From NCBI GenBank assembly GCA_035457655.1, contig DATIBF010000053.1, positions 23,182 through 87,181 on the forward strand: DNA of 64,000 nucleotides. The letters run 5' to 3'. Made by a program: the position numbers and the translations under genes. The notes below the pieces were generated by a model. It did no database searches, was not told where the DNA came from, and was given only the letters and a program-made list of their open reading frames with translations. Source of the stretch: Gaiellaceae bacterium. Its GTDB lineage: Bacteria > Actinomycetota > Thermoleophilia > Gaiellales > Gaiellaceae. Positions 22,668 to 59,669 of this stretch are shown in pieces; within the stretch, counting starts at the first letter, position 1; each line of letters begins with the position of its first letter.

Positions 22668-22671
22668 GCGC

Positions 22672-23487: not shown

Positions 23488-23503
23488 CGCCGCCTGGCGC
23501 GCC

Positions 23504-25688: not shown

Positions 25689-25696
25689 GGGCACCG

Positions 25697-27904: not shown

Positions 27905-27927
27905 CCGTCCCTCGCCTTCGGCTGAGT

Positions 27928-27958: not shown

Positions 27959-27992
27959 CTCCCTTCTCCCACGCTCATAAGCCAGGTGGCCC

Positions 27993-36485: not shown

Positions 36486-36491
36486 GTGCTT

Positions 36492-37388
36492 ATGGATACG
36501 CGCCAGCTGGCGATGTTCTGCGCGGTCGTCGAGCGCGAGAGCTTCTCCCAGGCGGCCGAGCGGCTCGGCGTGACGCAGCCCGCGGTGAGCCTCCAGGTGC
36601 GGGCCCTCGAGGAGCGGCTGGAAGTCAAGCTGCTCGACCGTTCCGGCCGGCGCGTCGAGCCGACCGAGGCCGGACGGCGGCTGTACCGAAACGCGCAACG
36701 GCTTCTGCAGGTCGAGGAGCAGCTGATCGAGGACGTCGCCGGCGCCGAAGGTGGCCTCCTCACGGGGACACTGGCAATCGGGGCCTCGACGGGCCCCGGC
36801 GCCCATCTCGTACCGCTCCTCCTCTGCGAGTTCCAGCGGGAGCACACCGAGCTCCGGGTCTCGCTCTCCGTCTGGGACACGCAGGCGGTGATCGAGCGCG
36901 TCGCCGATCGAGACGTCGAGCTCGGGGTCGTGGGCGCCGCCAGGCGGCACCGCTCGCTCGTCTTCGAGCCGCTTGCTCGCGACGAGATCGTCCTGGCGGT
37001 GCCCCCAGGGCACCCGGCGGCGGGCGGCGACATCGCCGTCGACGACCTGCGGGCGGAGACGCTTGTCGTCATGCAGGAGGGCGCCGGCGTGCGGCACGTG
37101 GTCGAGGAGGAGCTGCGCCGGGCCGGGCTTCGGCTCCGCGGCCTCGACCCGCGGCTGGAGCTGGGGCTGCAGGAGTCGGTGAAGAGCGCCGTCGCGGCCG
37201 GGTACGGCGTCGCGTTCATCTCGCGCACTGCGATCGAGGGCGAGCTCGCGGCAGGCACGCTCGGCTTCGCGCGGGTCACGGGGCTCGAGCCGTCGCGACA
37301 GCTCTATGTCGTCCGGCCGAAAGGTCGCTCGCCGACGCGCGCTGCCGGGGCCTTTCTGGAGTTCGCCCGTGCGCGGGTCGCCGCGTGA
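36492..37388 (+). CDS. LysR-family transcriptional regulator
   Basis: MDTRQLAMFCAVVERESFSQAAERLGVTQPAVSLQVRALEERLEVKLLDR (wHTH) followed by a substrate-binding domain. GTG 36486 is an alternative start. Confidence 0.9.
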   Translation: MDTRQLAMFCAVVERESFSQAAERLGVTQPAVSLQVRALEERLEVKLLDRSGRRVEPTEAGRRLYRNAQRLLQVEEQLIEDVAGAEGGLLTGTLAIGASTGPGAHLVPLLLCEFQREHTELRVSLSVWDTQAVIERVADRDVELGVVGAARRHRSLVFEPLARDEIVLAVPPGHPAAGGDIAVDDLRAETLVVMQEGAGVRHVVEEELRRAGLRLRGLDPRLELGLQESVKSAVAAGYGVAFISRTAIEGELAAGTLGFARVTGLEPSRQLYVVRPKGRSPTRAAGAFLEFARARVAA

Positions 37389-38362
37389 TCGTCCGCTGGG
37401 GCCTCGACAGCTATCCCGAGGTGCTGGCGGAGCTCGGGATCGAGCGGCCGCTCCTCATCACCACGCGCCGGTGGGATCACCTGCGGCTGCCGGTCGCGGC
37501 GCGGTTCTCCGGCGTCCGCCGGCACGTTCCGCGGGAGACGGTGGAGGAGGCGGTCGCTGCCGCCGAGAGCGCTGACGGCCTCGTAGCGCTCGGCGGCGGG
37601 AGCGCCATCGACACGGCGAAGGCGGTCAGCGCGGCCACCGGCCTGCCGGTGGTCTCGATCCCGACGACCTACTCGGGCGCCGAGTGGGCGACGGGGTTCG
37701 GCGTCCGGGACGAGGAGCGCGGGGTCAAGGTCGGGGGAGGAGGGGCCCGCGTCGAGGGCATCGTCTACGAGACGGACCTGACGCTCGGGCTTCCTCGGGA
37801 GGAGACCGGCGGCACGGCGCTGAATGCTCTTGCCCACTCGGCGGAGGCGCTCTACGTCACCGGCCGGAACCCGGATGCGGACCGCGAGGCGTTGGCCGGC
37901 GCCCGTCTCATCGCCTCCTCGCTGCCGGTGGTGCTCGCGAACGGAGACGATGTGGAAGCCCGGCGTGAGCTGCTCGAGGGCGCCCTCCACGCGGGCGCGG
38001 CGCTGGCGGGAGCGGGGCTCGGGCTCGGGCACGCCATGGCGCAGGCGCTCGGCGGCCGTTACGGGATCTCGCATGGTGCTCTCAATGCCGTCTGCCTTCC
38101 GCCTGCCCTGCGCTTCAACGAGCCGGTCGCGGCGGCCGAGATCGCCCGCTTCGGCGAGGCGATCGGCAGCCCTGACGAGGCTGCCGCGAAGGTCGAGGAG
38201 CTGGCCCGCCTGGCCGGCTTCGAGCGCCTTCGGGACCTGGGCGTCCCCGGGCCCGAGCTCCCGCTCGTCGCGGCCGCGGCGGCCGAGCGCGCCGGCGCGA
38301 AGGCGAACCCGCGGCCGGCCTCCCCGGAGGAGATCGCCGACCTCCTGCGCACAGTCTGGTAG
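37385..38362 (+). CDS. Iron-containing alcohol dehydrogenase family protein (maleylacetate-reductase-like)
   Basis: ALGGGSAIDTAKAV and NALAHSAEALY...HAMAQALGGRYGISHGALNA. GTG 37385 overlaps the LysR stop (GTGA). Confidence 0.85.
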   Translation: MIVRWGLDSYPEVLAELGIERPLLITTRRWDHLRLPVAARFSGVRRHVPRETVEEAVAAAESADGLVALGGGSAIDTAKAVSAATGLPVVSIPTTYSGAEWATGFGVRDEERGVKVGGGGARVEGIVYETDLTLGLPREETGGTALNALAHSAEALYVTGRNPDADREALAGARLIASSLPVVLANGDDVEARRELLEGALHAGAALAGAGLGLGHAMAQALGGRYGISHGALNAVCLPPALRFNEPVAAAEIARFGEAIGSPDEAAAKVEELARLAGFERLRDLGVPGPELPLVAAAAAERAGAKANPRPASPEEIADLLRTVW

Positions 38363-40278: not shown

Positions 40279-41577
40279 ATGGGGCTCGGGACGGCATTCG
40301 AGACCGGCCGCCTGTCGCGGGTGGGCATCCTCCGCCCGCTCAGGATCAGGGACTTCGCCCTGCTCTGGGCGGGTGCCGCGGTGTCGCTCGCCGGCGACGG
40401 CGTGTACGTGGTCGCGCTCGCGTGGCAGGTCTACGAGCTGTCCGACTCCCCGACCGCGCTCTCGCTCGTCGGGGTGGCCTGGACGGCGCCGCTCGGGCTC
40501 TTCGTGCTTCTCGGCGGCGTCGTCTCGGACCGGTTCTCGCGGCGCCGAATCATGATCGCCGCCGACCTCGTGCGAACGGCGGCGGCCGCCACGCTCGCGG
40601 CTCTCTCGCTCAGCGGGGTGATCGAGCTCTGGCACCTGATTGCGCTCGCGGCGGTGTTCGGCATCGGCGAGGCGTTCTTCGGCCCTGCCTTCACGTCGAT
40701 CGTTCCGCAGATCGTCCCTCGAGAGCTCCTGCTGCAGGCGAACTCGCTCGACCAGTTCATCCGGCCGTTCGCTTTTCTGCTGCTCGGTCCGGCGATCGGC
40801 GGCTGGCTGGTGGCGACGGCCGGTCCCGGCTGGGCCTTTGCCCTCGACGCGTGCACCTTCCTCGTCTCCGCCGGTGCGATCTTCCTCATCCGGCACCGGG
40901 GGGCCGTTCGGACCGATGCCTCCGAGCGAGGGGCGTCCATGCTGCGCGAGCTCCGCGAAGGCTTCGCCTTCGTCAGGGAGCATGCCTGGCTCTGGGCGAC
41001 GCTCCTCGCCGCGGCGGTGTTCCTGCTCGCGTACTGGGGCCCGATCGACGTGCTCGTCCCCTACCGGGTGAAGAACGAGCTCGGCGGGAGCGCCGGCGAC
41101 TTCGGCTTCGTCCTCGCGTGCGGCGGCGTCGGCTCGATCCTCGCCGCGCTCGTCCTCGGTCAGCGCGGCCTGCCGCGCCGGCACATCACCTTCATGTACT
41201 CGGCCTGGGCGCTCGGCTCGCTCGCCCTGGTCGGCTTCGGCCTGGCGACCGCGGTCTGGCAGCTCCAGGCGATCAGCCTCTTCGAGGGAGCTTCCTTCAC
41301 GGCCGGCCTCGTCGTGTGGGGGACGCTCGTGCAGACGCTCGTGCCGGGCGAGCTGCTCGGGCGCGTGACCAGCCTCGACTGGTTCGTCTCCACGAGTCTC
41401 GTGCCGGTCTCGTTCGCGCTTACCGGCCCGGTCTCGCACGCTCTGGGCGCGCAGACGACGCTCGTCGCGGGCGGCCTCGCAGCCGCGTTCGTCACGATCG
41501 CGTTCCTGTTCGTCCCCGGCGTTCGCGACACCGAGCGCGACGACAGCCTGCGCGACGCCCGCACCGCTCAAGAATAA
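40279..41577 (+). CDS. MFS transporter (EntS/MFS_3-like)
   Basis: 12 predicted TM helices. FALLWAGAAVSLAGDGVYVVALAWQV and SDRFSRRRIM loop. Confidence 0.85.
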   Translation: MGLGTAFETGRLSRVGILRPLRIRDFALLWAGAAVSLAGDGVYVVALAWQVYELSDSPTALSLVGVAWTAPLGLFVLLGGVVSDRFSRRRIMIAADLVRTAAAATLAALSLSGVIELWHLIALAAVFGIGEAFFGPAFTSIVPQIVPRELLLQANSLDQFIRPFAFLLLGPAIGGWLVATAGPGWAFALDACTFLVSAGAIFLIRHRGAVRTDASERGASMLRELREGFAFVREHAWLWATLLAAAVFLLAYWGPIDVLVPYRVKNELGGSAGDFGFVLACGGVGSILAALVLGQRGLPRRHITFMYSAWALGSLALVGFGLATAVWQLQAISLFEGASFTAGLVVWGTLVQTLVPGELLGRVTSLDWFVSTSLVPVSFALTGPVSHALGAQTTLVAGGLAAAFVTIAFLFVPGVRDTERDDSLRDARTAQE

Positions 41578-41608
41578 GCAAGGCAAATATGTGTGATTAG
41601 GAGAACAG

Positions 41609-41617
41609 TGGTATAGT
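41609..41617 (+). promoter_or_regulatory. Extended -10-like element TGGTATAGT, 9 nt upstream of ATG 41627
   Basis: This is the only AT-rich patch in the 49-nt gap. No SD lies at a functional distance; AGGAG is 24 nt upstream. Confidence 0.35.
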
Positions 41618-41626: not shown

Positions 41627-42820
41627 ATGGGCGAGCCCATCTCCGTCGACGTGCTCGTGGTCGGCAGCGGCGCCTCGGGACTCGCGGCCGCGGTGTCCGC
41701 CGCGCGCGCGGGCGCACGCGTGGCGCTCGCGGCGAAGGCATCGCTCCAGTCGTGCAACTCGGCCAAGGCCCAGGGCGGCATCCAGGCGGCCTTCGGAGAG
41801 GACGATTCCCCGGAGCAGCACGCGGAGGACGTCTGGAAGAGCTCGCACGAGACGGCGAACATGGAGCTGGTCCACGTGCTCACGTCGGAAGCGCCGGGGA
41901 CGATCCACTGGCTCGAGGAGCACGGCGTCGAGTTCACCCGCTCGAACGGTGGCTACCGTCTCGCCCGCTGCGGCGGCGCGAGCCGTAGGCGCCTGCTCCA
42001 GGTCGGCGACCGCACTGGCCTCGCCATCACGAGCGCGCTGCGCGGCGCCGTCGAGGCCCCGACCGTCCTCACGCTGCCGAAGTCGCCTCTCTCCGAGCTC
42101 GAGGCTACCGGGAGCGGCTGGCGGGCCCGCTGCGGCGAGCACGTCGTCGAGGCGGGCGCGGTCGTGCTCGCGGCCGGCGGGCGGTGCTTCCGCGAGGCCG
42201 AGGAGCGCCGCGAGCTCACCACCAACCACCCCGGCGCGACCGGCGAGGTGACCCAGATCGCGCTCGGCCTGGGCGCCGAGGCGCGCGACCTCGACGCGCT
42301 CCAGTACCACCCGAACGGCGGCGCGTGGCCGGCGACCATGCAGGGCTACTCGATTCCCGAGACGACGCGCGCCTACGGAGCCGTGCTCCTGAACGCCGCG
42401 CGCGAGGAGTTCACCGACTCGCTCGGCCCCCGCGACGAGGTCTCGCAGGCGATCTTCGACGAGGTCGAGGAAGGACGCGGGGTCGAGAGCCCCGACGGCC
42501 GGCCGGCCGTGTGGCTCGACACCACCCGGATCTCGCCCGAGGACGCCGAGATCTCGCTCCCCTACATGCTCCGGCGCTATCGCGCGGCCGGGATCGATCC
42601 GCTCGCCGAGCCGATCCTCACCTATCCCGTCCTCCACTACCAGAACGGCGGGCTCGTGATCGACGAGCATGGCGAGACGACCGTCGAGGGGCTCTTCGCC
42701 TGCGGCGAGATCGCCGGCGGCACGCACGGCCGGAACCGGATGATGGGCAACTCGCTGCTCGAGTGCTGCGTCTTCGGGCGCCGGGCCGGGAACGCCGCGG
42801 CCGAGAAGGCGACGAGCTGA
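41627..42820 (+). CDS. FAD-dependent oxidoreductase of the FrdA/SdhA/NadB flavoprotein family, lacking the C-terminal helical domain
   Basis: VDVLVVGSGASGLAAAVSAARAG, AQGGIQAAF, LQYHPNG and GRNRMMGNSLLECCVFGRRAG. It is only 397 aa. Confidence 0.85.
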   Translation: MGEPISVDVLVVGSGASGLAAAVSAARAGARVALAAKASLQSCNSAKAQGGIQAAFGEDDSPEQHAEDVWKSSHETANMELVHVLTSEAPGTIHWLEEHGVEFTRSNGGYRLARCGGASRRRLLQVGDRTGLAITSALRGAVEAPTVLTLPKSPLSELEATGSGWRARCGEHVVEAGAVVLAAGGRCFREAEERRELTTNHPGATGEVTQIALGLGAEARDLDALQYHPNGGAWPATMQGYSIPETTRAYGAVLLNAAREEFTDSLGPRDEVSQAIFDEVEEGRGVESPDGRPAVWLDTTRISPEDAEISLPYMLRRYRAAGIDPLAEPILTYPVLHYQNGGLVIDEHGETTVEGLFACGEIAGGTHGRNRMMGNSLLECCVFGRRAGNAAAEKATS

Positions 42821-43713
42821 TGGCGGTCGCCACCGATCTCCAGAAGGTCGTCGAGGACGCCGCGGCGCACCTCTACGTCTGGGCGCTGAAGGACATCCCG
42901 CAGGATCTCCGCGACGCGCTCGCGGAGGCCGCCGGCCGGGAGACCTCCGTCCCGGGGCAGCGCGTCCTGCAGACGATCCTCAGGAACGTCGAGGTCGCGG
43001 AGGAGGAGCGCAACCTCGTCTGCCAGGACACCGGGATCGCGGTCTACTACTGCCGGGTCGGCGAGCACTTCCCGCTGCATCCGGCCCGGATCTACGAGGC
43101 GCTGTACGACGGCACCGAGCGCGCGACGGTCGAGCATCCGCTGCGCTCGAACACCGTTCACACGCTCACCCGCGAGAACACGGGCCAGAACGTCGGCCAC
43201 CGCGTGCCGATCGTTCACTGGGATTTCGTCGCCGACTGGGACGGGCTCGACGTCAAGTGCGTCCCCAAAGGCTCGGGCTCCGAGAACATGAGCTTCCTGA
43301 AGATGTGCGTGCCGGCCGACGGCGTCGCAGGGATCAAGCGCTTCGTGCTCGACTCGATCGTCGGCGCCGGGGGGAAGCCGTGCCCGCCCGGGATCGTCGG
43401 AGTCGGCATCGGCGGCTCGGCCGACTATGCGATGTACCTCGCCAAGGAGGCAATCGCCCGCCCGGTCGGGACTCGCAACTCCGACCCGCTCGTGGCGCAG
43501 CTCGAGGACGAGCTCAAGGAGCTCCTCAACGAGACCGGCATCGGCCCGATGGGCCTCGGCGGCGACGTCACCGTCCTCCAGTGCCACGTCGAGCACGCGG
43601 ACACGCACATGACCCTGAACCCGGTCGCCGTCAACTACCAGTGCTGGGCCGCGCGTCGAGCGACGGCGCACATCGCCGCCGACGGCTCGGTCGACTACGA
43701 CCGGGAGGCGTGA
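42820..43713 (+). CDS. Fe-S type (class I) hydro-lyase, fumarate/tartrate family, alpha subunit
   Basis: VCQDTGIAVYY, VPKGSGSENMS and GIVGVGIGGSAD. The ATG overlaps the upstream TGA (TGATG). Confidence 0.85.
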   Translation: MAVATDLQKVVEDAAAHLYVWALKDIPQDLRDALAEAAGRETSVPGQRVLQTILRNVEVAEEERNLVCQDTGIAVYYCRVGEHFPLHPARIYEALYDGTERATVEHPLRSNTVHTLTRENTGQNVGHRVPIVHWDFVADWDGLDVKCVPKGSGSENMSFLKMCVPADGVAGIKRFVLDSIVGAGGKPCPPGIVGVGIGGSADYAMYLAKEAIARPVGTRNSDPLVAQLEDELKELLNETGIGPMGLGGDVTVLQCHVEHADTHMTLNPVAVNYQCWAARRATAHIAADGSVDYDREA

Positions 43714-44297
43714 TGGAAGAGCATCGCCTCACCTTCCCCGCGTCCGAGGAGGCCGTCCGCGAGCTGCGGGCCGGCGACTCCGTGCTCGTCGACGGGCACG
43801 TCATCGGCATCCGCGACCGGACGCAGATCCGCATCTTCGACCAGGGCATCGCGCCGCCGCTCGACCTCACCGGAGCCTTCCTCCTGCACACCGCGCCGAA
43901 CGTCCGCAAGGTCGGCGAGGGCCGGTACGAAAAGCTCTGCATCGGGACGACGACGAGCGCGCGCATGGTGCGCTTCACCGAGCCGCTCGGCCGCGACTAC
44001 GGCGTGCGCGCCATCTGCGGCAAGGGCGGGCTCCCCGACGAGGCGATCGAGCCGATGCGCCGCTACGGGATGGTCTACTTCGCCATCGTCGGCGGCGCGG
44101 CGGCGCTCGAGACGACCCAGATCGAGGAGATCGAGGAGGTCTACTGGGAGGAGCTCATGCCCGAGTGCCTGTGGAAGTTCCGGGTCAAGGACTTCGGCCC
44201 GCTGACCGTCGCCATCGACTCGCACGGAACCTCGCTCTACCACGACGTCCAGGAAGAGGCGAAGAAGCGATTGGAGGATCTCTATGCCCGGCTTTGA
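43713..44297 (+). CDS. Fe-S type (class I) hydro-lyase, beta subunit
   Basis: AGDSVLVDGHVIGIRDRTQIRIF, ICGKGGL and FAIVGGAAAL. TGATG overlap with the alpha subunit. Confidence 0.85.
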   Translation: MEEHRLTFPASEEAVRELRAGDSVLVDGHVIGIRDRTQIRIFDQGIAPPLDLTGAFLLHTAPNVRKVGEGRYEKLCIGTTTSARMVRFTEPLGRDYGVRAICGKGGLPDEAIEPMRRYGMVYFAIVGGAAALETTQIEEIEEVYWEELMPECLWKFRVKDFGPLTVAIDSHGTSLYHDVQEEAKKRLEDLYARL

Positions 44298-45072
44298 CGG
44301 CTTTCTCGACGTGCCGGCGCGCTCGCCGAAGCCGCGCGTCAAGGGGCTCACCCACGTTCTCGACAAGGGGCTGAGCCTCCCCGACATCGAGGGCCTGTTC
44401 GACACGGCGGGCGACTACGTCGACATCGTCAAGCTCGGCTGGGGAACGTCGTACGTGACGAACAACCTCGAGAAGAAGATCGCCCTCTACCGCTCGTTCG
44501 AGACCCCGGTCGTCTGCGGAGGGACGCTCTTCGAGGCCGCCGTCGCGCGCGAGAAGCTCGATGAGTACAAGAGCTGGCTTTCCGCGAACCGGCTGGCGCA
44601 CGTCGAGGTCTCCGATGGGACGGTCGACCTCCCGCGCGAGCAGAAGCTTGAGCTCATCGCCGACCTGGCTCGGGACTTCGTGGTCCTGTCCGAGGTGGGC
44701 TCGAAGGACGCCGAAGTCGTCTTCCCACCCTTCCAGTGGGTCGAGTGGATCAAGGAGGACCTCGACGCCGGCGCGTGGAAGGTGATCACCGAGGGTCGCG
44801 AGACCGGCACCGCCGGCATCTACAGGCCTTCCGGCGACATGCGCACAGGGCTCATCGACGAGATCGTGCACGAGATCGATGTGTCGGACGTCGTGTTCGA
44901 GGCGCCCGCCAGCGCGGCGCAGGCCTGGTTCGTCCAGCGCTTCGGCCCCGAGGTCAATCTCGGCAACATCCCGCCGGAGGAGGTCATCCCGCTCGAGACT
45001 CTTCGCCTGGGGCTCCGGGCCGACACGCTGAGGGAGGTGCTCCTGCGTGACGAGCCTGCTCTCGCTGACTGA
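44284..45072 (+). CDS. comA: (2R)-phospho-3-sulfolactate synthase
   Basis: Close collinear resemblance to archaeal ComA as I remember it: VLDKGL, GDYVDIVKLGWGTS, GGTLFE, VEVSDG, LSEVG, DLDAGAWKVITEGRE, VVFEAP and IPLETLRLGLRADT. Confidence 0.85.
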   Translation: MPGFDGFLDVPARSPKPRVKGLTHVLDKGLSLPDIEGLFDTAGDYVDIVKLGWGTSYVTNNLEKKIALYRSFETPVVCGGTLFEAAVAREKLDEYKSWLSANRLAHVEVSDGTVDLPREQKLELIADLARDFVVLSEVGSKDAEVVFPPFQWVEWIKEDLDAGAWKVITEGRETGTAGIYRPSGDMRTGLIDEIVHEIDVSDVVFEAPASAAQAWFVQRFGPEVNLGNIPPEEVIPLETLRLGLRADTLREVLLRDEPALAD

Positions 45073-45739
45073 GTCGGAGATCGAGGCGTTGCCGGCAGAG
45101 GACGTCCTCCGCTGGGCGGCGGAGGAGTTCGGCGACCGGCTCTGCCTCTCGTGCTCCTGGCAGAAGCAGTCCTCGGTGCTCGTGCACATGGTCTCCGAGC
45201 TCGGGCTCGACGTCGACTTCGTCGAGCTCGACACCCACCTCTTCTTCAAGGAGTCCTACGAGACGCGCGAGCGGCTCGTCGAGCGCTACGGGATCACGTT
45301 GATCGTCCCGGAGGTGCTGACGATCGCCGAGCAGCACAGGCGCGAGGGGCCGAACCTCTGGGAGACGAACCCCGACCGCTGCTGCCACATCCGGAAGGTC
45401 GAGCCGTTGCTTCGCCTGCTGGAGCCGTACGACGCGTGGGTCTCCGGCATCCGCCGCGAGCAAGCGCCGTCGCGCGCGAGCGCGCGGAAGGTCGAGCGCT
45501 CCGAGCGCTACGGCGTCTGGAAGGTGCAGCCCCTGGCGGACTGGAGCGAGAAGGAGGTCTGGCTGTACATCCTCCAGAACGACATCCCCTACAACCCGCT
45601 CCACGACGTCGGCTACCGTTCCATCGGCTGCATCCCGTGCACGAGGCCCACGAGGCCCGACGAGGAGGAGCGCGCGGGGCGCTGGGCCGGCTCCGACAAG
45701 CTGGAGTGCGGCATCCACGTCGAAGACAAGGACACGTAG
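45047..45739 (+). CDS. cysH: Assimilatory APS/PAPS reductase, Fe-S-cluster (APS-reductase) type
   Basis: SCSWQKQSSVLVHM, DRCCHIRKVEPL, SIGCIPCT (CC...CxxC cluster ligands) and C-terminal ECGIH. Confidence 0.9.
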   Translation: MTSLLSLTESEIEALPAEDVLRWAAEEFGDRLCLSCSWQKQSSVLVHMVSELGLDVDFVELDTHLFFKESYETRERLVERYGITLIVPEVLTIAEQHRREGPNLWETNPDRCCHIRKVEPLLRLLEPYDAWVSGIRREQAPSRASARKVERSERYGVWKVQPLADWSEKEVWLYILQNDIPYNPLHDVGYRSIGCIPCTRPTRPDEEERAGRWAGSDKLECGIHVEDKDT

Positions 45740-45751
45740 AAGGAGACAGGT

Positions 45752-46351
45752 TTGAGCGAGCACATTTTCGCCCACGAGCACCCGGAGTCCGACCGCGCGC
45801 GCGGCGGCGGCTTCACGATCTGGTTCACGGGTCTCTCGGGCTCCGGCAAGTCGACGATCGCGCACCTCGTCGGCCCGGCCCTGGACGAGCGCGGGCACAT
45901 CGTCGAGTACCTCGACGGCGACACCGTCCGCACCCATCTCTCGAAGGGCCTCGGCTTCTCGAAGGAGGACCGCGACACGAACATCGAGCGCATCGGCTGG
46001 GTCGCTTCGCGCATCACGCGCCACGGTGGGGCTGCCATCACCGCGGCCATCTCGCCCTACGTGGAGACGCGGCAGAAGGCGCGCGAGATGGTGGAGCAGT
46101 TCGGGCCGTTCGTCGAGGTCTTCGTCAAGGCGTCGGTCGAGGAGTGCGCGCGGCGGGACGTCAACGGTCTCTACGCCAAGGCCTTCGCCGGCGAGATCAA
46201 GGGCTTCACCGGCGTGGACGACCCGTACGAGGAGCCGGAGAGCCCGGAGATCATCGTCGACACGGAGGCGCAGACCCCGGAAGAAAGCGCCCAGATCGTC
46301 GTCCAGCGCCTGGAGGAACTCGGGCTCGTCGGCGCCGAGGTGCGGGCGTGA
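45752..46351 (+). CDS. cysC: Adenylylsulfate (APS) kinase
   Basis: [37 protein letters not shown] and SPY. TTG start with AAGGAGA upstream. Confidence 0.95.
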
Positions 46352-47484
46352 GCGCGGTCACGACGGACCACCTCATCCGTCCGCACGGCGGCGTTCTCGT
46401 TGAGCGCTCGGGCCCGCGACCCGACGACGTCGACTCGCTCGAAGTGATGACGCTCACCTCCCGCGAGCTCTCCGACCTCGACATGCTCGCCTCGGGCGCG
46501 CTCTCCCCGCTCACCGGCTTCATGGGCCGCGAGGACTACGAGGGAGTCGTCGAGTCGATGCAGCTCGCCAACGGCCTCCGCTGGGCCCTGCCCGTCTGCC
46601 TGGCGGTCGCCGAGGCGCCGAAGGGCGACCGGGTGGCGCTCGCGGACGAGTCGGGCCGCCGGCTCGCCGTGCTCGACGTCGAGGAGGTGTACTCCTACGA
46701 CAAGGAGCGCGAGGCCGAACAGTGCTTCCGGACGGCCGACGGCGAGCATCCGGGCGTGGCCCAGCTGTACGCGCAGGAGAGCTCGTACCTGGCCGGTTCG
46801 GTGAGCGTGTTCGAGCGGCTCGAACCCGAGTTTCCGGAGCTGCACCGCGATCCGGCCGACACGCGGGCGCTCTTCGCCGAGCGTGGCTGGCGGGGCGTGG
46901 TCGGCTTCCAGACCCGCAACCCCATCCACCGAGCGCACGAGTACCTGACGAAGTGCGCGCTCGAGACCGTGGACGGCCTGCTCATCCACCCGCTCGTCGG
47001 CGCGACGAAGTCGGACGACGTTCCCGTTGACGTCCGCGTGAAGGCCTACGACATTCTCGTCGAGGGCTACTACCCGGCCGACCGCGTCGTCGTCTCCGCC
47101 TTCCCGGCCGCCATGCGTTACGCAGGGCCGCGGGAGGCGATCTGGCACGCGATCTGCCGCAAGAACTACGGCTGCTCGCACTTCATCGTCGGGCGCGACC
47201 ATGCCGGCGTGGGCAACTACTACGGCACCTACGACGCCCAGCTCATCTTCGACGAGTTCGAGCCGCACGAGCTCGACATCGAGCCGATGTTCTTCGAGCA
47301 CTCGTTCTGGTGCAAGGTCTGCGGCCAGATGGCGACGGCAAAGACCTGCCCGCACGGAGGCGACGACCACGTCTTCCTCTCGGGCACGAAGGTGCGCGAG
47401 CTGCTCTCGGCGGGCAAGCTGCCGCCGGAGGAGTTCACGCGTCCCGAGGTCGCGGAGATCCTGATCGAGGCATACCGCGGCTAG
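46348..47484 (+). CDS. sat: Sulfate adenylyltransferase (homo-oligomeric ATP sulfurylase)
   Basis: [33 protein letters not shown] and [13 protein letters not shown] 46348 overlaps the cysC stop (GTGA). Confidence 0.95.
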
Positions 47485-47537
47485 AACCCGTGTCGAAATG
47501 ACGCCTCGGGACAGGGCTTCGTTTTGACACGGGTTCT
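47483..47537 (+). promoter_or_regulatory. 16-bp stem / 23-nt loop structure pairing the sat stop codon region with the TTG start of the downstream sulfotransferase
   Basis: AGAACCCGTGTCGAAA (47483-47498) pairs with TTTTGACACGGGTTCT (47522-47537) with one G-U. TTG 47524-47526 lies inside the 3' arm. Confidence 0.6.
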
Positions 47538-48534
47538 GAACAACGACAGACCGATCATCGTCCTCGGGTGCCCGCGCTCGGGCACGACGATGCTGCAGCT
47601 CATGCTGCACAGCCACCCCAGGATCGCGATTGCGCCCGAGACTCGGTTCACGCTGCTTGCGTACCGGCAGCGCCTAGACTTTGGGAACCTCGAGGCGCCC
47701 TCCGGTCGCCGTGTGCTCGCCGAGTCGATCGTCGCGAGCCCTGCCTTCGAGAAGCTCGGCCTCGATCGGCAGCTGATGGTCGACCAGATCGTCGCGGGGC
47801 CCGCGACGGTCGGGTCGGCGATCGGGATCGTCCTGCGCGCGTACGCCGACCGGTTCGGAAAGCCACGGTGGGGCGAGAAGCGGCCGGGCTACTACCGGTA
47901 CATCCACGTGCTGATGCGCCTTTTCCCGGATGCGCAGATCGTCCACATCGTCCGCGACCCCCGAGACTGCATCGCCTCCCTCAAGCGGATGCCGTGGTGG
48001 ACGCAAGGGGCCTACCACTCGGCGTTCGCCTGGGCGCATTCGATCGATCTCACGGCGAAGGCGGCCCGGACCTGGCCGGTGCTGCGCGTGCGCTACGAGT
48101 CTCTCGTCGCCGACCCCGAGGGCGAGCTGCGGAAGCTCTCCGCGGCGCTCGGCGAGGACTACGTTCCGGAGATGGCCGCGCCGGAGCGGCTTGCCGCGGC
48201 GATCGTCCCGGATCGAGGTTGGGGTCACCGCCGGACGCGGGAGAAGCCGCCGACCACCGCCCTCATCGGCAGCTGGCAGGGGACGCTCGAGCCGTGGGAG
48301 CTCGCGCTCTGCGAGACGGTGCTCGCCGGGCGGATGGAGAGGTTCGGCTACGAGCTCACGGACGCCGGCCGCCCGTCCCCGCGGCACCTCGCGCGCTACG
48401 CGTGGGTGGCGGCAACCCGGACGCAGCACCACCGCGTCAAGCTGCTGCGCGACCGCTGGCAGCGGCGCTCCGAGCCGAACCCTGTGGCCGCCGAGCTCAC
48501 GTCCGCCCAGCGAGCGGCCGTCGGGGTCGTATAG
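47524..48534 (+). CDS. Sulfotransferase (PAPS-dependent, Sulfotransfer_1/3-like)
   Basis: 5'-PSB-type loop IVLGCPRSGTTMLQLML; later IVHIVRDPRD (3'-PB-type). Confidence 0.8.
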   Translation: MTRVLNNDRPIIVLGCPRSGTTMLQLMLHSHPRIAIAPETRFTLLAYRQRLDFGNLEAPSGRRVLAESIVASPAFEKLGLDRQLMVDQIVAGPATVGSAIGIVLRAYADRFGKPRWGEKRPGYYRYIHVLMRLFPDAQIVHIVRDPRDCIASLKRMPWWTQGAYHSAFAWAHSIDLTAKAARTWPVLRVRYESLVADPEGELRKLSAALGEDYVPEMAAPERLAAAIVPDRGWGHRRTREKPPTTALIGSWQGTLEPWELALCETVLAGRMERFGYELTDAGRPSPRHLARYAWVAATRTQHHRVKLLRDRWQRRSEPNPVAAELTSAQRAAVGVV

Positions 48535-48536
48535 AG

Positions 48537-50456
48537 CTACACCCGGACGAGCTGGCGGAGGATGCGCTCGGCGAGGGCTCCGGGCTCGCGCTCCTTCTGC
48601 GGGAGCCAGACCGAGCGCACGTAGTCGATGACGTGAGCCCCGTCGGGGGACTCGACCGGGACAACCTCGTCCGGGGGCTCGCCGCCGTCGGCGAGCGCGC
48701 GGAACACCTCCCACTCACGTCGCTTGCGCCGTGTGCGGGTCGTCGTGTGGAAGTCGGTGTCCGTCCAGTGATCGAACTCGTCGGCGTCGAGGTACTTCAG
48801 CTCGACACAGGACCAGTCGGGAAGGACGATGCGCTGGACCTCGCGCGGCAGGACGGGCTGTTCCCACTCCATCGCCTTGACGAAGCTGTAGCCGGGACGG
48901 TTCGGCCACCCCCAGGCCTCGCAGTTGGCCAGCCCGAGGTCGAGGAACGCCCGCCGGTCGTCGGCGACGTAGAGCGGAAAGCGGGGGATCTTCACGACCG
49001 CGTCGGAGGCCTCCAGCTGCCAGGCGAGGTCGCGCAGCGTGCTGACGGCCGTGTCGGTCAGGATCATGTCTGCGTCCCACTTGAGCGCGTAGCGGGTGCG
49101 CACGTGTGAGAACGACCAGTTGTAGAAGTAGACGAGGCTGTGCAGGGACATGGCCGGAGTGCCGAGGTGCTCCTCGCCGCAGCGCGCCACCGAGAACGGG
49201 TACAGGTGGATCTCGAGGCGGTCTTCGGCGCCCTCGTCGGCCGCTGTGGCACGCGCCACCTCGAGCGTCCGGTCCGTGGAGCCGTTGTCGATCAGGACGA
49301 CGCGCTCGGCGGCACGGAGGAGCGGAGGCAGCACCCAGGGGAGCGCCCGCTCCTCGTTCTTCGCCCGAACGACCGCCGTGAAGCCGGGCGCGGGCGTTCC
49401 CTCCGCCCAGCCCCAGCGGACGTTGAAGTCGGCCTGGTGCTCGAGGTTGGTCAGCACCGGCGACCTGGAGTGGCCCACGCGTCGGGCGGCACCCTGCTCC
49501 AGCCAGCCCTCGACTGTGTGCACCCGCCGGGCCATCCGATGGAGCTGGCCGATGCGCGTGTGCCTGTCGATCGTCTCCTGCACCAGCGGAACGAGCGGCG
49601 TCACCTGCTCCCGCCAGTCGGCCAGGTCGTCCTTTCCGCCGGACGGCCGGACGGGCTCGTACCCGTACTCGTCGAAGTCGGCCGCGTAGTGTCGGTTGAG
49701 CCCCTCGGCCGTGGCGGCGTCGAACGCCGACCGCGGCAGCGGGAGCGGTGTGCGGTTCTCGTGCCTCGTCTCCGTCGGCCACAGCTCTTCCGGGACGTGC
49801 GCCTTGAGGAGCGCGAGCGTCTCGTCGAGCGCCTCGAGTCGTCCGACGTGGCCGAGGGGGAGCCGAGCGACGAGATCGTGCTGAACCGCCCAGTGCACGT
49901 CGACGGCCTCCCCGGCTGCCACGGCTGCGACGAAGCGGCGAAAGTCCTCCACGGCGTCATCGGGAGAGTGGGGGACCCGGGGGAACCACGGCTCCTCTCC
50001 GTACTCCGTGAAAAAGCGAGGCTCGCGCAGGAGCAGCTTCGACTGCCACGCCGACCACAGGCGCGGGGCGGGGTCGCGAACGACGGAGAAGCGCAGCCAG
50101 CCGTCCTCGGTGAGCACGCGCTCGCGCTCCTCGCCCTCGTAGTCGGCCAGCCGCCTGCCGGGCCCCCAGAGGCTCATGTCGTGCACGGTCAGCGCGGGGG
50201 AGACCCCCGGCAGCGTCGAGTGCTCGAAGGTCTCCGCCGGGATGCCCGCGAGCTCGGACAGGAGCCAGAGCACGGTCGTCCACCCAGCCTTCGGAATGGG
50301 CAGGTACAGGACGCGCAGCTCCCGGAGCACGACCGTCCGCAACTCCACGTGCTGAGCGAACGGGAAGTCGGCCTCGCCCTGAACGGGAGGCTCGAGCGCG
50401 TCCTCCGACGCGGCGGCGGGGGCTACCGACTCGGCTGTCTCGAGGCTTTCGGTCAC
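48537..50456 (-). CDS. Bifunctional-looking fusion of an N-terminal Sulfotransfer_2-type sulfotransferase and a C-terminal GT2 glycosyltransferase
   Basis: N-terminal half: YLPIPKAGWTTVLWLL (PKxGxT 5'-PSB), FSVVRDPAPRLWSAW (3'-PB) and VDVHWAVQ. C-terminal half: TAVVRAKNEERALPWVL...VVLIDNGSTDRT and KWDADMIL (DxD). Start placed at GTG 50456. The listed 828-aa ORF start at 51023 would run antisense through the next gene. Confidence 0.8.
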   Translation of the reverse strand: MTESLETAESVAPAAASEDALEPPVQGEADFPFAQHVELRTVVLRELRVLYLPIPKAGWTTVLWLLSELAGIPAETFEHSTLPGVSPALTVHDMSLWGPGRRLADYEGEERERVLTEDGWLRFSVVRDPAPRLWSAWQSKLLLREPRFFTEYGEEPWFPRVPHSPDDAVEDFRRFVAAVAAGEAVDVHWAVQHDLVARLPLGHVGRLEALDETLALLKAHVPEELWPTETRHENRTPLPLPRSAFDAATAEGLNRHYAADFDEYGYEPVRPSGGKDDLADWREQVTPLVPLVQETIDRHTRIGQLHRMARRVHTVEGWLEQGAARRVGHSRSPVLTNLEHQADFNVRWGWAEGTPAPGFTAVVRAKNEERALPWVLPPLLRAAERVVLIDNGSTDRTLEVARATAADEGAEDRLEIHLYPFSVARCGEEHLGTPAMSLHSLVYFYNWSFSHVRTRYALKWDADMILTDTAVSTLRDLAWQLEASDAVVKIPRFPLYVADDRRAFLDLGLANCEAWGWPNRPGYSFVKAMEWEQPVLPREVQRIVLPDWSCVELKYLDADEFDHWTDTDFHTTTRTRRKRREWEVFRALADGGEPPDEVVPVESPDGAHVIDYVRSVWLPQKEREPGALAERILRQLVRV

Positions 50457-50516
50457 GTGTCCGTCGGTAGCCCAGTCTACGTCACGGTCCGGCACGGGCC
50501 GCGCCGCCGCTCTCGC

Positions 50517-50522
50517 TAAGCT
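50517..50522 (+). promoter_or_regulatory. -10-like TAAGCT, 7 nt upstream of ATG 50530 (leaderless-type arrangement) in a 73-nt divergent intergenic region
   Basis: Fits TANNNT, with no SD. Confidence 0.3.
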
Positions 50523-50529
50523 GCGCGCG

Positions 50530-51603
50530 ATGAGCACCCCGGTGGAGCAGGGCGAGCCAACAGCCGCCGTCGAGCAGCACGCGCCGTCCGACGACCGCAC
50601 CCTCGTTCTCGTCGTCGGCTCGGGTCGCAGCGGGACGAGCCTCTTCACGGGGATCATGCAGCGGCTCGGCTTCCACGTGCCGCAGCCGGAGGTGGGCGCG
50701 GACCCGACGAATCCGCGTGGGTTCGCCGAGCCCAAGTGGGTGGTCGACTTCCACAACGGGCTCCTCGGCCGCGCCGGTGTGCAGGTCGCGGACGCGAGGC
50801 CGTCCGCCTGGGCACAGACCGGCCGGGTGGCCATCGACGAGGACGTCCGGCGCAACCTGCGGGAGTGGCTCGCGGGCGAGTTCGCGAAGGACGACCACGT
50901 CATCATCAAGGACCCCCGGCTCTCCTGGTTCCTGCCCCTCTGGCGACAGGCGGCGCTCGACGTGGGCGCGTCGCCGAGATTCGTGACCGTGCTCCGCCAC
51001 CCGGCTGCCGTCATCGAGAGCAAGCAGCGCTCCTACGGCAGCTGGCAGGGCGACGTCGAGCGGACGGCCGGCTGGGTCAACCAGGTGCTCTTCACCGAGC
51101 GGGCGACCCGCGAGGGTCCCAGGGCGTTCGTCAGGTACCAGGACCTCCTCGACGACTGGACGGGCGTGACCGCCCACGTCGGGGACGCCCTCGACCTGGC
51201 CGTCGTCCGCGACGCGCCGGCGGCGACGATCGTCCAGATCCACGAGTTCGTCGACCGCTCGCTCAGCCGCTCGCGCTCGAGCTGGGAGGACTTCGAGATC
51301 CCGGAGAGCCTTCGCACGCTCGCCGATGAGGTGTGGGACCTCGTCTCCGGCCTCGCGGATCACGAGGCCGACCGCGCGGTGCTTGATCGGCTGGAAGCGG
51401 CGCGCCTCGCCTACATCGAGCTCTACGAGGACGCCGAAGCGATCGCTCAGTCCTCGATTACGGCGGCCGCGCGCGGCTCGACCGAGCGCAGCACGGCGGT
51501 CCGGGCCCTCAGAAGGGTTCCGAAGCGCTACAAGCGGAAGATCCCGCGGAGCTGGCGCGTCACCGTCTCCCGCGCTCTGTCGCGCGGCGGCGTGAACCCC
51601 TAG
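50530..51603 (+). CDS. Sulfotransferase family protein
   Basis: LVLVVGSGRSGTSLFTGIM (P-loop-like PAPS 5'-phosphosulfate binding loop) and VTVLRHPAAVIES (3'-PB-like). Confidence 0.8.
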   Translation: MSTPVEQGEPTAAVEQHAPSDDRTLVLVVGSGRSGTSLFTGIMQRLGFHVPQPEVGADPTNPRGFAEPKWVVDFHNGLLGRAGVQVADARPSAWAQTGRVAIDEDVRRNLREWLAGEFAKDDHVIIKDPRLSWFLPLWRQAALDVGASPRFVTVLRHPAAVIESKQRSYGSWQGDVERTAGWVNQVLFTERATREGPRAFVRYQDLLDDWTGVTAHVGDALDLAVVRDAPAATIVQIHEFVDRSLSRSRSSWEDFEIPESLRTLADEVWDLVSGLADHEADRAVLDRLEAARLAYIELYEDAEAIAQSSITAAARGSTERSTAVRALRRVPKRYKRKIPRSWRVTVSRALSRGGVNP

Positions 51604-53603
51604 CTCGGAGGCTGCAGGCAGGTCAAACCCGCCGTGCGGAAGGTCGGCGAGTAGCCGGCCGCTTGCAAGGTCTCGAGAGCGCCGAGCCTCCGGCTCTCGA
51701 CACAAGCTACGTCGACCCCGACAAGGCGGAGCGCCCGGCCGACGGCCGATTCGTCGCGGGGCCGCTCGGACACTCCGGTGACCGTCGCGACGAGCTCGGG
51801 CTCGAGGATCGACTGCAGCAAGAGTCGTTCCTGCACGAAAGCCTCCGGCACGTCCTCCAGCGCTCTGGTGTAGAAGACCCTCGGAGAGACCGTCGTGACG
51901 TTGCCCGACATGATGAGCAGCGTCTGCGCGACCTGTTGGGGCGCGAGGACGACGTCACCGGGCTCTGCCCGGGCGAGGATCCGTCGCGCCGCCGTCAAAG
52001 TCTCCGGAGGACGCTTCCAGGACGGCTCGGAGCGAACAGTCCCGGCGTCCCAGATCGGGCTCCCCCAGACGATCAACGCCACGCAGAGGAGCCCTGCCGG
52101 AAGCGCACGCAGCACGGCCGGGCCGGCGCGCGGCGGCAGCGCGGTGACGGCTACTCCCACGAGAGCGGCGACCGGGACGATCCAGACGACCCGCCAGAGG
52201 ACGCGGCCGATCCCGGTGACTTCCCAGATGAACGGCGGCACCGGGGGCGCGTAGAGGACGGCCACGAGCAGCACTGTCGATGCGGCCATGAGAGCGGCGC
52301 GGCGGTCGGCGATCAGCGGGGGCCCGATCAGCGCGGCCGCGACCGCGACGAACGCCAGGAAGCCGCTCCCGAGAACGATCCTGGCGATCTCGCCAGTGGC
52401 CACGTCGGAGGAGAAGTCCTCGCCGGCCCTGCGTTGCCCTGCGGCCGCGGTGACGACGAGGGCGCCGAGCGGGTAGGCGGCAACCGCCGCGAGCCCGAGC
52501 GCCGCCTCCCTGACGGAACGCAGGGCCAGTGGAGCGAGGCACCCCGCGCCGAGCGCCAGGAGCACGAAGGTTCCGCTGCTGGTCAGGCCCACCCCGGCCG
52601 CTCCGGCAGCGGCAAGTAGCACGAGCGCGCGCCGAGTGGGCCGCTCCGAGTACTCCTGCGCGAGGACGAACAGGACGGGGACGAGAACGACGAGCAGGAT
52701 GATCTTCCCCTGCCAGATGCGCCCGACGAACAGGTTGCCGAGGGTTCGGTGCTCCTCGGCGGCTATGACCAAGAAGACCATCGCGGTGGTGAGGGCGAGC
52801 CCGACGAGCGGCACTTTCCATGCGCGCAGCAGCCGCCACGTGGCCAGGACGCCGAGGACCGTCGCCAGCGGCGTGACGACCAGATAGGTCACGCCGGCGG
52901 CCGAGACGCCGACGGCTCCGGCAAGCGAGCCGATCAGCGCCTCGAAGGACGAGATTGGCGGGTAGATGATCGCCGGGAAGACCTCGTCGGAGAAGAGCGT
53001 GTCCCGCAGCGGAAAGCTGCCGTGCTCGGCGATCCACGTGGACAGATGGACGTACTGCGTGTCGTCGGCGTCCGGGCGGACGAAGAGCAACGAGAACACC
53101 GCGAGTCCGGCCGCCCAGACGAAGGCCACGACGGTTCCCGGCCACGCCCGCGCGCCGTCGGCCGCGAGGTCGAGGCGAAGTCGCCCGGTCGCCCTCAGGT
53201 ACGCGAGGCCCGTCCCTGCGGCCGCGGTCAGGAAGAGCAGGAGCCAGACGACCGCCCAGCGCGCCTCGGCGAACGCGTAGACGGCGGCGCTCAGGCCCAC
53301 TGCCGCCGAGTAGCCGCAGAGCGCGAGGGCCAGCCGGCTTGGCGGCCAGGCCGCGGGCCGCGACGGCTCGTGTGTGGGCCGTGCGTCGTCATCGCGCCGG
53401 AAGGCAATCCACGCTGACGCGACGAGCCCGGCTGCCCAGGCGATCAGAGCCCAGACGGCGTCGATTCCGAGCACCACGCACGCGTGGTAGACGACGGTCC
53501 ACGCGGCAAGGGCGAGCACGACGAAATCGAGCAAGCCGTCGCAACCGCGCGCGATACCGGCCGGCGGCAGCTGGAACGACCTTCCCGCACGCAAGTCCAC
53601 CAT
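51600..53603 (-). CDS. Large polytopic membrane protein, GT-C-like (putative lipid-carrier-dependent glycosyltransferase)
   Basis: 667 aa from ATG 53603 (MVDLRAG...), with more than 12 hydrophobic helices followed by a roughly 150-aa soluble C-terminal domain. The listed 928-aa ORF start is antisense to the next gene. Confidence 0.7.
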   Translation of the reverse strand: MVDLRAGRSFQLPPAGIARGCDGLLDFVVLALAAWTVVYHACVVLGIDAVWALIAWAAGLVASAWIAFRRDDDARPTHEPSRPAAWPPSRLALALCGYSAAVGLSAAVYAFAEARWAVVWLLLFLTAAAGTGLAYLRATGRLRLDLAADGARAWPGTVVAFVWAAGLAVFSLLFVRPDADDTQYVHLSTWIAEHGSFPLRDTLFSDEVFPAIIYPPISSFEALIGSLAGAVGVSAAGVTYLVVTPLATVLGVLATWRLLRAWKVPLVGLALTTAMVFLVIAAEEHRTLGNLFVGRIWQGKIILLVVLVPVLFVLAQEYSERPTRRALVLLAAAGAAGVGLTSSGTFVLLALGAGCLAPLALRSVREAALGLAAVAAYPLGALVVTAAAGQRRAGEDFSSDVATGEIARIVLGSGFLAFVAVAAALIGPPLIADRRAALMAASTVLLVAVLYAPPVPPFIWEVTGIGRVLWRVVWIVPVAALVGVAVTALPPRAGPAVLRALPAGLLCVALIVWGSPIWDAGTVRSEPSWKRPPETLTAARRILARAEPGDVVLAPQQVAQTLLIMSGNVTTVSPRVFYTRALEDVPEAFVQERLLLQSILEPELVATVTGVSERPRDESAVGRALRLVGVDVACVESRRLGALETLQAAGYSPTFRTAGLTCLQPPS

Positions 53604-53627
53604 AGTAAGCAACCGGAGCCACTCGGC

Positions 53628-55340: not shown

Positions 55341-55366
55341 GCGGAGGGGTGCCCACGGGCACTCGG

Positions 55367-55372
55367 TATCCT
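55367..55372 (+). promoter_or_regulatory. -10-like TATCCT, 8 nt upstream of ATG 55381
   Basis: Fits TANNNT, with no SD before the ATG. Confidence 0.25.
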
Positions 55373-55380
55373 CCTCGCCC

Positions 55381-56886: not shown

Positions 56887-56901
56887 CCCGTCCCGAGCGG
56901 C

Positions 56902-58371: not shown

Positions 58372-58479
58372 ACTGGGCGGCCGGTCCGGCGGTGGCGGCT
58401 GCTATGGTCGCCGGTTGCTGCAGGTCATCATCGAGGCGCGGGAACACGCGCAGGCTGTGAAAACGGAAGGGAGCTCCGA

Positions 58480-59655: not shown

Positions 59656-59669
59656 GGCACTCGGGCGAG

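Follow-up and report, generated by a model that had tools for sequence, protein, structure and literature searches.

A seven-gene operon of Gaiellaceae joining sulfate reduction and ComA to a fumarase-type hydro-lyase and a short flavoprotein: a candidate route to 3-sulfopropanoate

A contig assigned to a Gaiellaceae bacterium (Actinomycetota, Thermoleophilia; assembly GCA_035457655.1, contig DATIBF010000053.1) contains, within the stretch of 64,000 nucleotides (nt) analyzed here (the window; G+C content 71%), an operon of seven genes at positions 41627-47484. It joins genes of sulfate activation and reduction (sat, cysC and cysH) to comA, to the genes for two subunits of a class I iron-sulfur (Fe-S) hydro-lyase, here termed HylAB, and to a gene for a short flavoprotein having the fold of fumarate reductase (FrdA) and L-aspartate oxidase (NadB). 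With confidence slightly better than even, we read this as a biosynthetic operon that, as predicted from sequence, would convert sulfate and phosphoenolpyruvate (PEP) to a C3 sulfonate through sulfoacrylate, ending at 3-sulfopropanoate. The first-pass annotation of this DNA had proposed a ComA-initiated C3-sulfonate pathway whose subsequent chemistry (elimination or hydration, then flavin-dependent redox) follows no described route. That proposal is supported by the assignment of the flavoprotein to a distinct clade, by the co-occurrence of this clade with comA, and by the pairing of flavoprotein with a lyase resembling Xanthobacter XcbC in nine of 11 distant genomic contexts, seven of which place that lyase in the slot held by hylAB in the window.

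In the scheme we propose, Sat would form adenosine 5'-phosphosulfate (APS), which the Fe-S-type CysH would reduce to sulfite, with CysC diverting part of the APS to 3'-phosphoadenosine 5'-phosphosulfate (PAPS) for neighboring sulfotransferases; ComA would then combine sulfite with PEP to give (2R)-phosphosulfolactate. HylAB would replace a lyase of the XcbC type (class II fold) in yielding sulfoacrylate, either through dehydration of sulfolactate following the action of a separate phosphatase or through direct elimination of phosphate, and the flavoprotein, with non-covalent flavin adenine dinucleotide (FAD), would reduce sulfoacrylate, a sulfonate counterpart of fumarate, to 3-sulfopropanoate. 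By the same chemical reasoning, (R)-sulfolactate is a spatial analogue of (S)-malate. Cassettes in other phyla that include a ligase and, sometimes, a sugar N-deacetylase suggest, by analogy, that the acid may be joined to an amino sugar within a surface glycan. We infer every substrate and product after the ComA step, and document below which genes are present, how they are coupled, to which families they belong, and how widely they are conserved and occur together.

The operon and its conservation in Thermoleophilia

Seven plus-strand coding sequences, deduced from the layout of open reading frames (ORFs), lie in the order flavoprotein-hylA-hylB-comA-cysH-cysC-sat and are all coupled (Table 1). 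The flavoprotein/hylA and hylA/hylB junctions each consist of TGATG, a 1-nt overlap; hylB and comA overlap by 14 nt, comA and cysH by 26 nt, and cysC and sat by 4 nt (GTGA), while cysH and cysC are separated by 12 nt. The coordinates and every junction given in the first-pass annotation were reproduced, and each of its family assignments, including that of CysH to the Fe-S type, was upheld by Pfam and NCBIfam profiles. ComA matches the phosphosulfolactate synthase structure 1u83 (E = 6e-64) and is 36.5% identical to Xanthobacter XcbB; its score against TIGR03849 (236 bits) falls under the cutoff of that archaeal equivalog (280 bits). CysH carries the motifs CC112-113, CxxC195-198 and ECGIH220-224. 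The Cys pattern CC...CxxC together with ECG[IL]H marks Fe-S APS-type reductases, and from these motifs we infer that CysH prefers APS over PAPS.

To follow the operon in related taxa, one genome per species was scanned with a profile built from a seven-sequence flavoprotein alignment, which gave 80 loci (L001-L080). Sixty-four of these are of Thermoleophilia type, and 55 of the 64 contain enough sequence to be evaluated; genes in the related loci were delimited by simple ORF calls. The order flavoprotein-hylA-hylB-comA occurs in 47 of the 55 evaluable species loci, and in the remaining eight (L035, L052, L055 and L058-L062) the flavoprotein gene lies next to comA with no hydro-lyase gene between them. 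The clade is thus found with comA in 55 of 55, and the expectation that this gene neighborhood would be conserved in relatives was borne out. Among 43 loci having at least 6 kb of sequence downstream of comA, cysH is present there in 34, cysC in 29 and sat in 26. Some Gaiellaceae loci (L008, L010, L013, L018-L020, L025, L029, L031, L035 and L050) carry after comA a different cysH paralogue, whose product shares 40-46% identity with the window CysH, and are missing sat; in L035 a CysN-like GTPase occupies the sulfate-activation position. The sulfate-activation module has therefore been swapped in these loci with the link to comA kept, and, because cysH, cysC and sat or their replacements recur downstream, sulfite supply appears as the constant partner of ComA in this group.

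Two further observations concern these loci. In nine of them (L005, L014, L015, L018, L047, L051, L053, L056 and L063) sat, cysH, hylA, hylB or the flavoprotein gene is split into two adjacent tblastn pieces, which in metagenome-assembled genomes are more likely to be assembly frameshifts than pseudogenes. Several loci with the lyase-less arrangement LysR-flavoprotein-ComA (L055, L058-L062, L083, L084 and L093) encode downstream a secreted protein of ~650 residues with a faint match to GH42, together with a Cys-rich protein of 113-150 residues and, in some, an aldo-keto reductase.

A short flavoprotein clade associated with ComA

The flavoprotein matches positions 2-389 of the 489-position NadB profile and aligns with residues 5-416 of the 602 in Escherichia coli FrdA. 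Its AlphaFold model (pLDDT 95.9) has E. coli FrdA as the top match in the Protein Data Bank (PDB), with TM scores of 0.90 (query) and 0.63 (target), so that only the FAD and capping domains are present. The description of this protein as a truncated FrdA/NadB-like flavoprotein therefore holds with respect to the missing C-terminal domain and fails insofar as it implies a one-off truncation, the protein being a normal member of a clade whose members are uniformly short (397-425 residues). A protein search with its sequence scored 8000 candidates, all with E <= 1e-20; the closest are Gaiellaceae soil proteins, and one annotated protein of a Gaiellaceae metagenome-assembled genome is identical to it.

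Alignment with E. coli FrdA and NadB shows that the flavoprotein retains the residues of substrate binding and catalysis, H228, E245, R248, R269, H337 and R371, equivalent to FrdA His232, Glu245, Arg248, Arg287, His355 and Arg390. It has N44 at the position of His44, which binds FAD covalently in FrdA, C115 at the position of NadB Glu121, the residue that binds the amino group, and P244 at the position of FrdA Thr244. Its best NCBIfam match is NadB, at 252 bits with a cutoff of 452.75. In a neighbor-joining tree of 97 homologues, computed without support values, the short proteins bearing Pro in place of FrdA Thr244 group into a single clade (28 of 28 members), separate from the NadB group, all of whose members have Glu121, and from the FrdA/SdhA group, all of whose members have the covalent-FAD His. 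Residues and tree alike thus set the clade apart from housekeeping NadB and FrdA, as had been anticipated. Two familiar identities were considered and rejected: NadB, by the missing Glu121, the length, the score and the clade; and a respiratory FrdA or SdhA, by the lack of the covalent-FAD His, of the C-terminal domain and of an adjacent FrdB or SdhB.

The sister clade consists of proteins of 526-560 residues with an N-terminal extension of ~85 residues (loci L065-L080). In Nitrospira their genes lie among those for ATP-citrate lyase, aconitase and succinyl-CoA synthetase, behind a gene for a 4Fe-4S protein (e.g., L076:3385-12613), and in gammaproteobacteria of sulfur-oxidizer type (Sedimenticola- and Thiomargarita-type) they precede a gene for a NuoF-like protein (e.g., L067:9089-12664). 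These full-length matches, 40-43% identical, were excluded as members of the system, since they form an N-extended sister clade residing in clusters of the reductive tricarboxylic acid (rTCA) type. Incomplete or otherwise unusual soluble fumarate reductases of the rTCA cycle have been discussed (PMC13147460), and the sister clade probably corresponds to their A subunits. Given this identity, the nearest relatives of the flavoprotein with an assigned role are putative fumarate reducers, which by analogy fits a reductive, enoate-reducing role for the flavoprotein itself.

Non-covalent FAD favors reduction and, on thermodynamic grounds, disfavors C-C desaturation. This bears on the notion that the cluster is catabolic, degrading 3-sulfopropanoate or sulfolactate with release of sulfite. 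In principle the enzymes could operate in the opposite direction, through oxidation and hydration, and yet we hold such a role to be very improbable: N44 at the His44 position disfavors the desaturation that it requires, the genes very probably share a transcript with the sulfite-producing sat, cysC and cysH, reversal of ComA would call for a sulfolactate kinase, and neither a sulfite exporter nor a sulfite oxidase is present.

Contexts of the short clade beyond Thermoleophilia were sought with a second profile, assembled from short homologues that share 33-40% identity with the window flavoprotein. It led to 11 distant proteins, 29-64% identical to the reference sequence of the profile, on contigs from marine, soil and other samples. 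ComA adjoins the flavoprotein in 10 of the 11 contexts, extending beyond Thermoleophilia the predicted co-occurrence of the clade with comA, and in nine the flavoprotein is adjoined by an argininosuccinate-lyase-like (Lyase_1) protein. Each of these nine lyases shows 30-38% identity to Xanthobacter XcbC along almost its entire length and only weak similarity to XcbD. For one that was scanned, XcbC is the top NCBIfam match (387 bits, versus 255 for ArgH), and its best plasmid matches are on coenzyme M (CoM)-biosynthesis plasmids of alkene oxidizers, in which xcbC follows xcbB; xcbB and xcbC are likewise adjacent in Xanthobacter. XcbC eliminates phosphate from phosphosulfolactate to give sulfoacrylate (PMC9457059). 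Seven of the 11 contexts have the order flavoprotein-XcbC-like lyase-ComA, which mirrors flavoprotein-hylAB-ComA, so that the XcbC-like lyase fills the slot of hylAB.

All 11 distant contexts lie in or beside polysaccharide-biosynthesis genes. An ATP-grasp or AMP-binding (adenylating) ligase is adjacent in seven, one of which also includes a carrier protein, and two have a VimE-like or PIG-L sugar deacetylase as a neighbor. A broader proposition, which we advance tentatively and with rather less than even confidence, is that a widespread pathway leads from PEP and sulfite through sulfoacrylate to 3-sulfopropanoate by way of a short FrdA-like sulfoacrylate reductase, furnishing a C-sulfonate acyl group to surface glycans in many phyla, and that in Gaiellaceae a class I Fe-S hydro-lyase of fumarase type has taken over from the XcbC-type lyase.

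Assigning the steps after ComA

The first-pass annotation reported neither ComB nor ComC in the window, and our searches agree. No Pfam match to either was found among the called genes of the window, and two real ComB sequences, the proteins beside ComA in Brevibacillus and Legionella, gave no significant match when run against all six frames of the window (tblastn E > 0.3; hidden Markov model E > 0.6); none of the 80 genome loci has a ComB match at distances of up to 10 kb. Pfam scans of the window revealed no Ldh_2 domain and nothing read as ComDE, some genes at 2-31 kb having been judged by reading of translations only. Four XcbC-like lyases used as tblastn queries had no match in the window or in the 80 loci, and scans of window genes gave no Lyase_1 domain and nothing read as a pyridoxal-phosphate enzyme of the XcbE type. 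Homologues of the ATP-grasp, AMP-binding, VimE-like and carrier proteins of the distant cassettes were likewise absent from the window and the 80 loci. A side observation concerns the ComA family itself: on a plasmid of Legionella lytica (NZ_CP071528.1; L096:6856-10484), a 970-residue ORF annotated as phosphosulfolactate synthase comprises ComA with ~700 extra residues, and has ComB after it and an aminotransferase before it.

These negatives bear on whether the operon might encode a variant of bacterial CoM biosynthesis. Such a pathway would account for ComA and for a lyase step like that of the Xcb pathway. We nevertheless regard it as highly unlikely, given that no homologue of XcbD or XcbE and no ComB, ComC or ComDE was found, that no alkene or epoxide genes dependent on CoM were seen in the window, and that the surroundings are devoted to glycan synthesis and sulfotransferases.

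HylA and HylB match, respectively, the alpha (7xky_A; E = 3.5e-74) and beta (7xky_B; E = 1.2e-32) subunits of the class I fumarase of Methanocaldococcus jannaschii. HylB scores 150 bits against the subfamily model TIGR00723 (cutoff 145), far under the fumarase equivalog NF004708 (151 bits; cutoff 269), and well under the cutoff of the tartrate dehydratase equivalog too. All three cluster cysteines (C68, C188 and C275) are kept in HylA. Active-site residues were compared with those reported for 7xky: D75, R115 and G160 in the alpha subunit and R32, T80, T81, R84 and K104 in the beta subunit (PMC13147460).

Several results weigh against assigning HylAB to sulfonate metabolism, or against the scheme as a whole. 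All of the fumarase residues are kept (HylA D70, R109 and G153; HylB R34, T80, T81, R84 and K104), and HylA exceeds the cutoff of the fumarate hydratase equivalog NF004885 (307 bits; cutoff 276). With every ligand and active-site residue retained and the alpha subunit scoring as an equivalog, HylAB is not separable from housekeeping fumarase by sequence; so judged, it is a fumarase-type enzyme having no sulfonate-specific marker. Furthermore, conservation within the operon is highest for hylA, at 82-95% identity among close relatives, as might be the case for a gene of central metabolism. The eight hydro-lyase-less loci contain no lyase of either class within 10 kb; their lyase gene would have to lie farther away, or else the flavoprotein can do without a lyase. 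A phosphatase acting on phosphosulfolactate was not found either, the flavoprotein has no electron donor encoded close by, in contrast to its sister clade, and the window includes no ligase or other consumer of 3-sulfopropanoate.

These results lend themselves in part to a different account, unlikely in our estimation, in which HylAB is an ordinary fumarase, perhaps moonlighting, and the core of the system is LysR-flavoprotein-ComA, with the lyase encoded elsewhere or with lyase-free chemistry on a ComA-derived substrate. The intact residues, the equivalog score of the alpha subunit, the eight loci with flavoprotein and ComA only, and the conservation of hylA are all in keeping with it. It accords poorly with the translational coupling of hylAB on both sides (the TGATG junctions and the 14-nt overlap), with the position of hylAB in the slot of the XcbC-like lyase of seven distant cassettes, with the retention of this arrangement in 47 species-level genomes, and with the shortfall of HylB against the fumarase equivalog. 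It is this coupling, retention and positional equivalence to the XcbC-like lyase that argue for a role of HylAB in sulfonate formation.

A second account, which we think improbable, would have HylAB supply fumarate to a NadB-like flavoprotein acting by a ping-pong mechanism: the flavoprotein would oxidize (R)-sulfolactate (or a similar C3 sulfonate with a substituent at C2) to sulfopyruvate and reduce fumarate to succinate, constituting a non-orthologous replacement of ComC. NadB-type enzymes do take fumarate as oxidant, NadB is the best NCBIfam match of the flavoprotein, the fumarase residues are intact, and no redox partner is encoded nearby, each consistent with such a cycle. Yet the partner in other lineages is XcbC-like, with sulfoacrylate rather than fumarate as its known product; Glu121 is missing; the sister clade indicates reduction of the fumarate type and not oxidation of a 2-substituent; there is no ComB to provide sulfolactate; and the operon includes no gene using sulfopyruvate (ComDE or an aminotransferase). 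Both alternatives retain some weight because the fumarase residues are intact and eight loci have no lyase, while the XcbC-like partner seen in other phyla counts against both.

If the route through sulfoacrylate to 3-sulfopropanoate is correct, it would constitute a third fate of the ComA product, besides CoM and sulfolactate; it would give a function to a large mis-annotated clade labelled "L-aspartate oxidase / FAD-binding"; and HylAB would be the first fumarase-type Fe-S hydro-lyase acting on a sulfonate, a new substrate class for such enzymes. It would also predict C-sulfonated, as opposed to O-sulfated, surface glycans in several phyla. Gaiellaceae are among the most abundant soil actinobacteria, and their assimilation of sulfate in soil would be tied to an output of organosulfonate, with a bearing on the soil organic sulfur pool.

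Regulatory and flanking features, and comparison with known systems

The gene inventory of the first-pass annotation was accurate for the operon and overlooked two conserved genes upstream, which encode a LysR-family regulator and a protein of the Fe-dependent alcohol dehydrogenase family (Fe-ADH; Table 1). In 52 loci the flavoprotein gene is preceded by an orthologue of the LysR gene, and in the eight loci without hylAB the two adjoin directly. The Fe-ADH, whose nearest named PDB entries are the maleylacetate reductases 3w5s and 3hl0, is kept between the LysR and flavoprotein genes in most Gaiellaceae loci, and the pair often adjoins the flavoprotein gene directly; in the window an unassigned ORF, RsgA and a major facilitator superfamily (MFS) transporter (38.4-41.6 kb) separate the pair from the operon. 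Genes for a DegT aminotransferase and a Polysacc_synt_2 dehydratase lie upstream of LysR, within the conserved neighborhood.

The -10-like sequence noted earlier just before the first ATG was located as TGGTATAGT and is backed by conservation across orthologous upstream regions. An element of the form G[GC]TAnnnT, or (T)GGTAnnnT, ends 6-10 nt 5' of the start codon in most orthologous loci, which implies a leaderless or near-leaderless mRNA. Farther upstream, the motif ATAAG...ATTAG recurs 5' of orthologous operons irrespective of the identity of the gene preceding them; in the window its ATAAG shares bases with the MFS stop codon. The combination of the -10-like element with an upstream AT[TA]AG motif is found in 35 of 59 orthologous upstream regions, compared with 0.5% of random windows. 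A simple -35/-10 scan revealed no full sigma-70 pair at the start of the operon, so the promoter assignment rests on this cross-species conservation. The conserved LysR regulator probably governs transcription of the operon into a leaderless mRNA, and we regard LysR, the Fe-ADH and the probably leaderless promoter as further parts of the system.

Table 1. Coordinates of the operon and of associated features in the 64,000-nt window.
Feature	Position	Strand	Support or remark
LysR-family transcriptional regulator, probable operon regulator	36486..37388	+	Pfam HTH_1 + LysR_substrate
Fe-dependent alcohol-dehydrogenase-family protein, maleylacetate-reductase-like	37385..38362	+	Pfam Fe-ADH, ADH_Fe_C; coupled to LysR gene
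ATAAG...ATTAG conserved motif, candidate LysR-type operator	41574..41600	+	Recurs upstream of orthologous operons
Extended -10-like element TGGTATAGT, 9 nt 5' of ATG	41609..41617	+	Cross-species conservation
Short FrdA/NadB-fold flavoprotein, 397 aa, candidate sulfoacrylate reductase	41627..42820	+	Pfam FAD_binding_2, 221 bits
hylA, class I Fe-S hydro-lyase alpha subunit, 297 aa	42820..43713	+	Pfam Fumerase, 305 bits
hylB, class I Fe-S hydro-lyase beta subunit, 194 aa	43713..44297	+	Fumerase_C, 95 bits
ComA, (2R)-phospho-3-sulfolactate synthase, 262 aa	44284..45072	+	Pfam ComA, 279 bits
CysH, Fe-S-type (APS) sulfonucleotide reductase, sulfite supply; GTG start	45047..45739	+	PAPS_reduct; NF002537, 249 bits (cutoff 154)
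CysC, APS kinase (to PAPS); TTG start	45752..46351	+	APS_kinase, 206 bits; TIGR00455, 212 bits (cutoff 139)
Sat, ATP sulfurylase	46348..47484	+	PUA_2 + ATP-sulfurylase; NF003166, 524 bits (cutoff 387)
PAPS-type sulfotransferase, 39 nt 3' of sat, likely consumer of the CysC product	47524..48534	+	Sulfotransfer_3, 127 bits
Sulfotransfer_2 + GT2 fusion, 828 aa	48537-51023	-	
AlkP-type phosphodiesterase	55369-56886		

Downstream of sat, positions 47524-60722 hold a glycan cluster rich in sulfotransferases, comprising three genes with sulfotransferase domains together with those for a flippase, an epimerase and a glycosyltransferase of family 2 (GT2). Homologues of its first sulfotransferase occur downstream in 10-11 related loci. 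This cluster suggests an O-sulfated surface glycan fed by CysC, and Sat and CysC probably supply the adjacent sulfotransferases as well as the operon. Within the cluster, two long ORFs overlap on opposite strands (51600-54386 on the minus strand and 53418-55340 on the plus strand); one has a match to DUF6077 and the other has no Pfam match. Elsewhere in the window, positions 19366-29090 hold what, by reading of translations only, look like genes for menaquinone synthesis (futalosine-type radical SAM, UbiD-, UbiX- and UbiE-like) and Rieske/cytochrome b genes, apparently unrelated to the sulfonate operon.

With the methanogen route through ComA, ComB, ComC and ComDE, and with comA-comB pairs of the Bacillus type, the window shares ComA; ComB, ComC and ComDE were not found in it. 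In Brevibacillus and Legionella, by contrast, comA and comB are adjacent. The yit locus of Bacillus subtilis likewise places paralogous sat and cysH genes beside comA. The class I enzymes, M. jannaschii fumarate hydratase (7xky) and L-tartrate dehydratase TtdAB, have in common with HylAB the alpha/beta architecture, the three Cys ligands and the active-site residues; unlike them, hylAB is translationally coupled within a ComA operon, and its proposed substrate, by analogy, would be sulfolactate or phosphosulfolactate. A more indirect comparison is offered by amino-sugar modification of the Wbp/Vim type, in which deacetylation is followed by reacylation (Porphyromonas gingivalis; PMC7468200); the distant cassettes resemble it in pairing sulfonate genes with a deacetylase and an ATP-grasp ligase in glycan loci, whereas the Gaiellaceae window has no such deacetylase or ligase.

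The closest parallel is the Xcb pathway of Xanthobacter autotrophicus (PMC9457059), with XcbB corresponding to ComA and XcbC as the lyase: the start at ComA is common to both systems, and most likely sulfoacrylate as well. The window differs in having no lyase of the aspartase/fumarase superfamily, with a class I Fe-S hydro-lyase pair in that slot, in lacking XcbD and XcbE, and in including the sulfite-supply genes within the same operon; because the flavoprotein stands in place of XcbD and XcbE, the product is not expected to be CoM. In a literature search of incomplete coverage, neither a ComA-lyase-flavoprotein cassette nor a sulfoacrylate reductase was found to have been described. ComA-initiated biosynthesis of sulfonates is already known, and it is the two enzyme roles proposed here that appear undescribed, the lyase replacement being apparently non-homologous. 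As for the flavoprotein, it shares the fold and catalytic residues of the FrdA-SdhA/NadB superfamily and departs from it in the C-terminal domain, the covalent-FAD His and Glu121, all of which it lacks, and in the Pro at the Thr244 position; it likewise has neither the N-terminal extension nor the Fe-S or NuoF partner of its sister clade. In the genome it is partnered with ComA and not with TCA or NAD genes.

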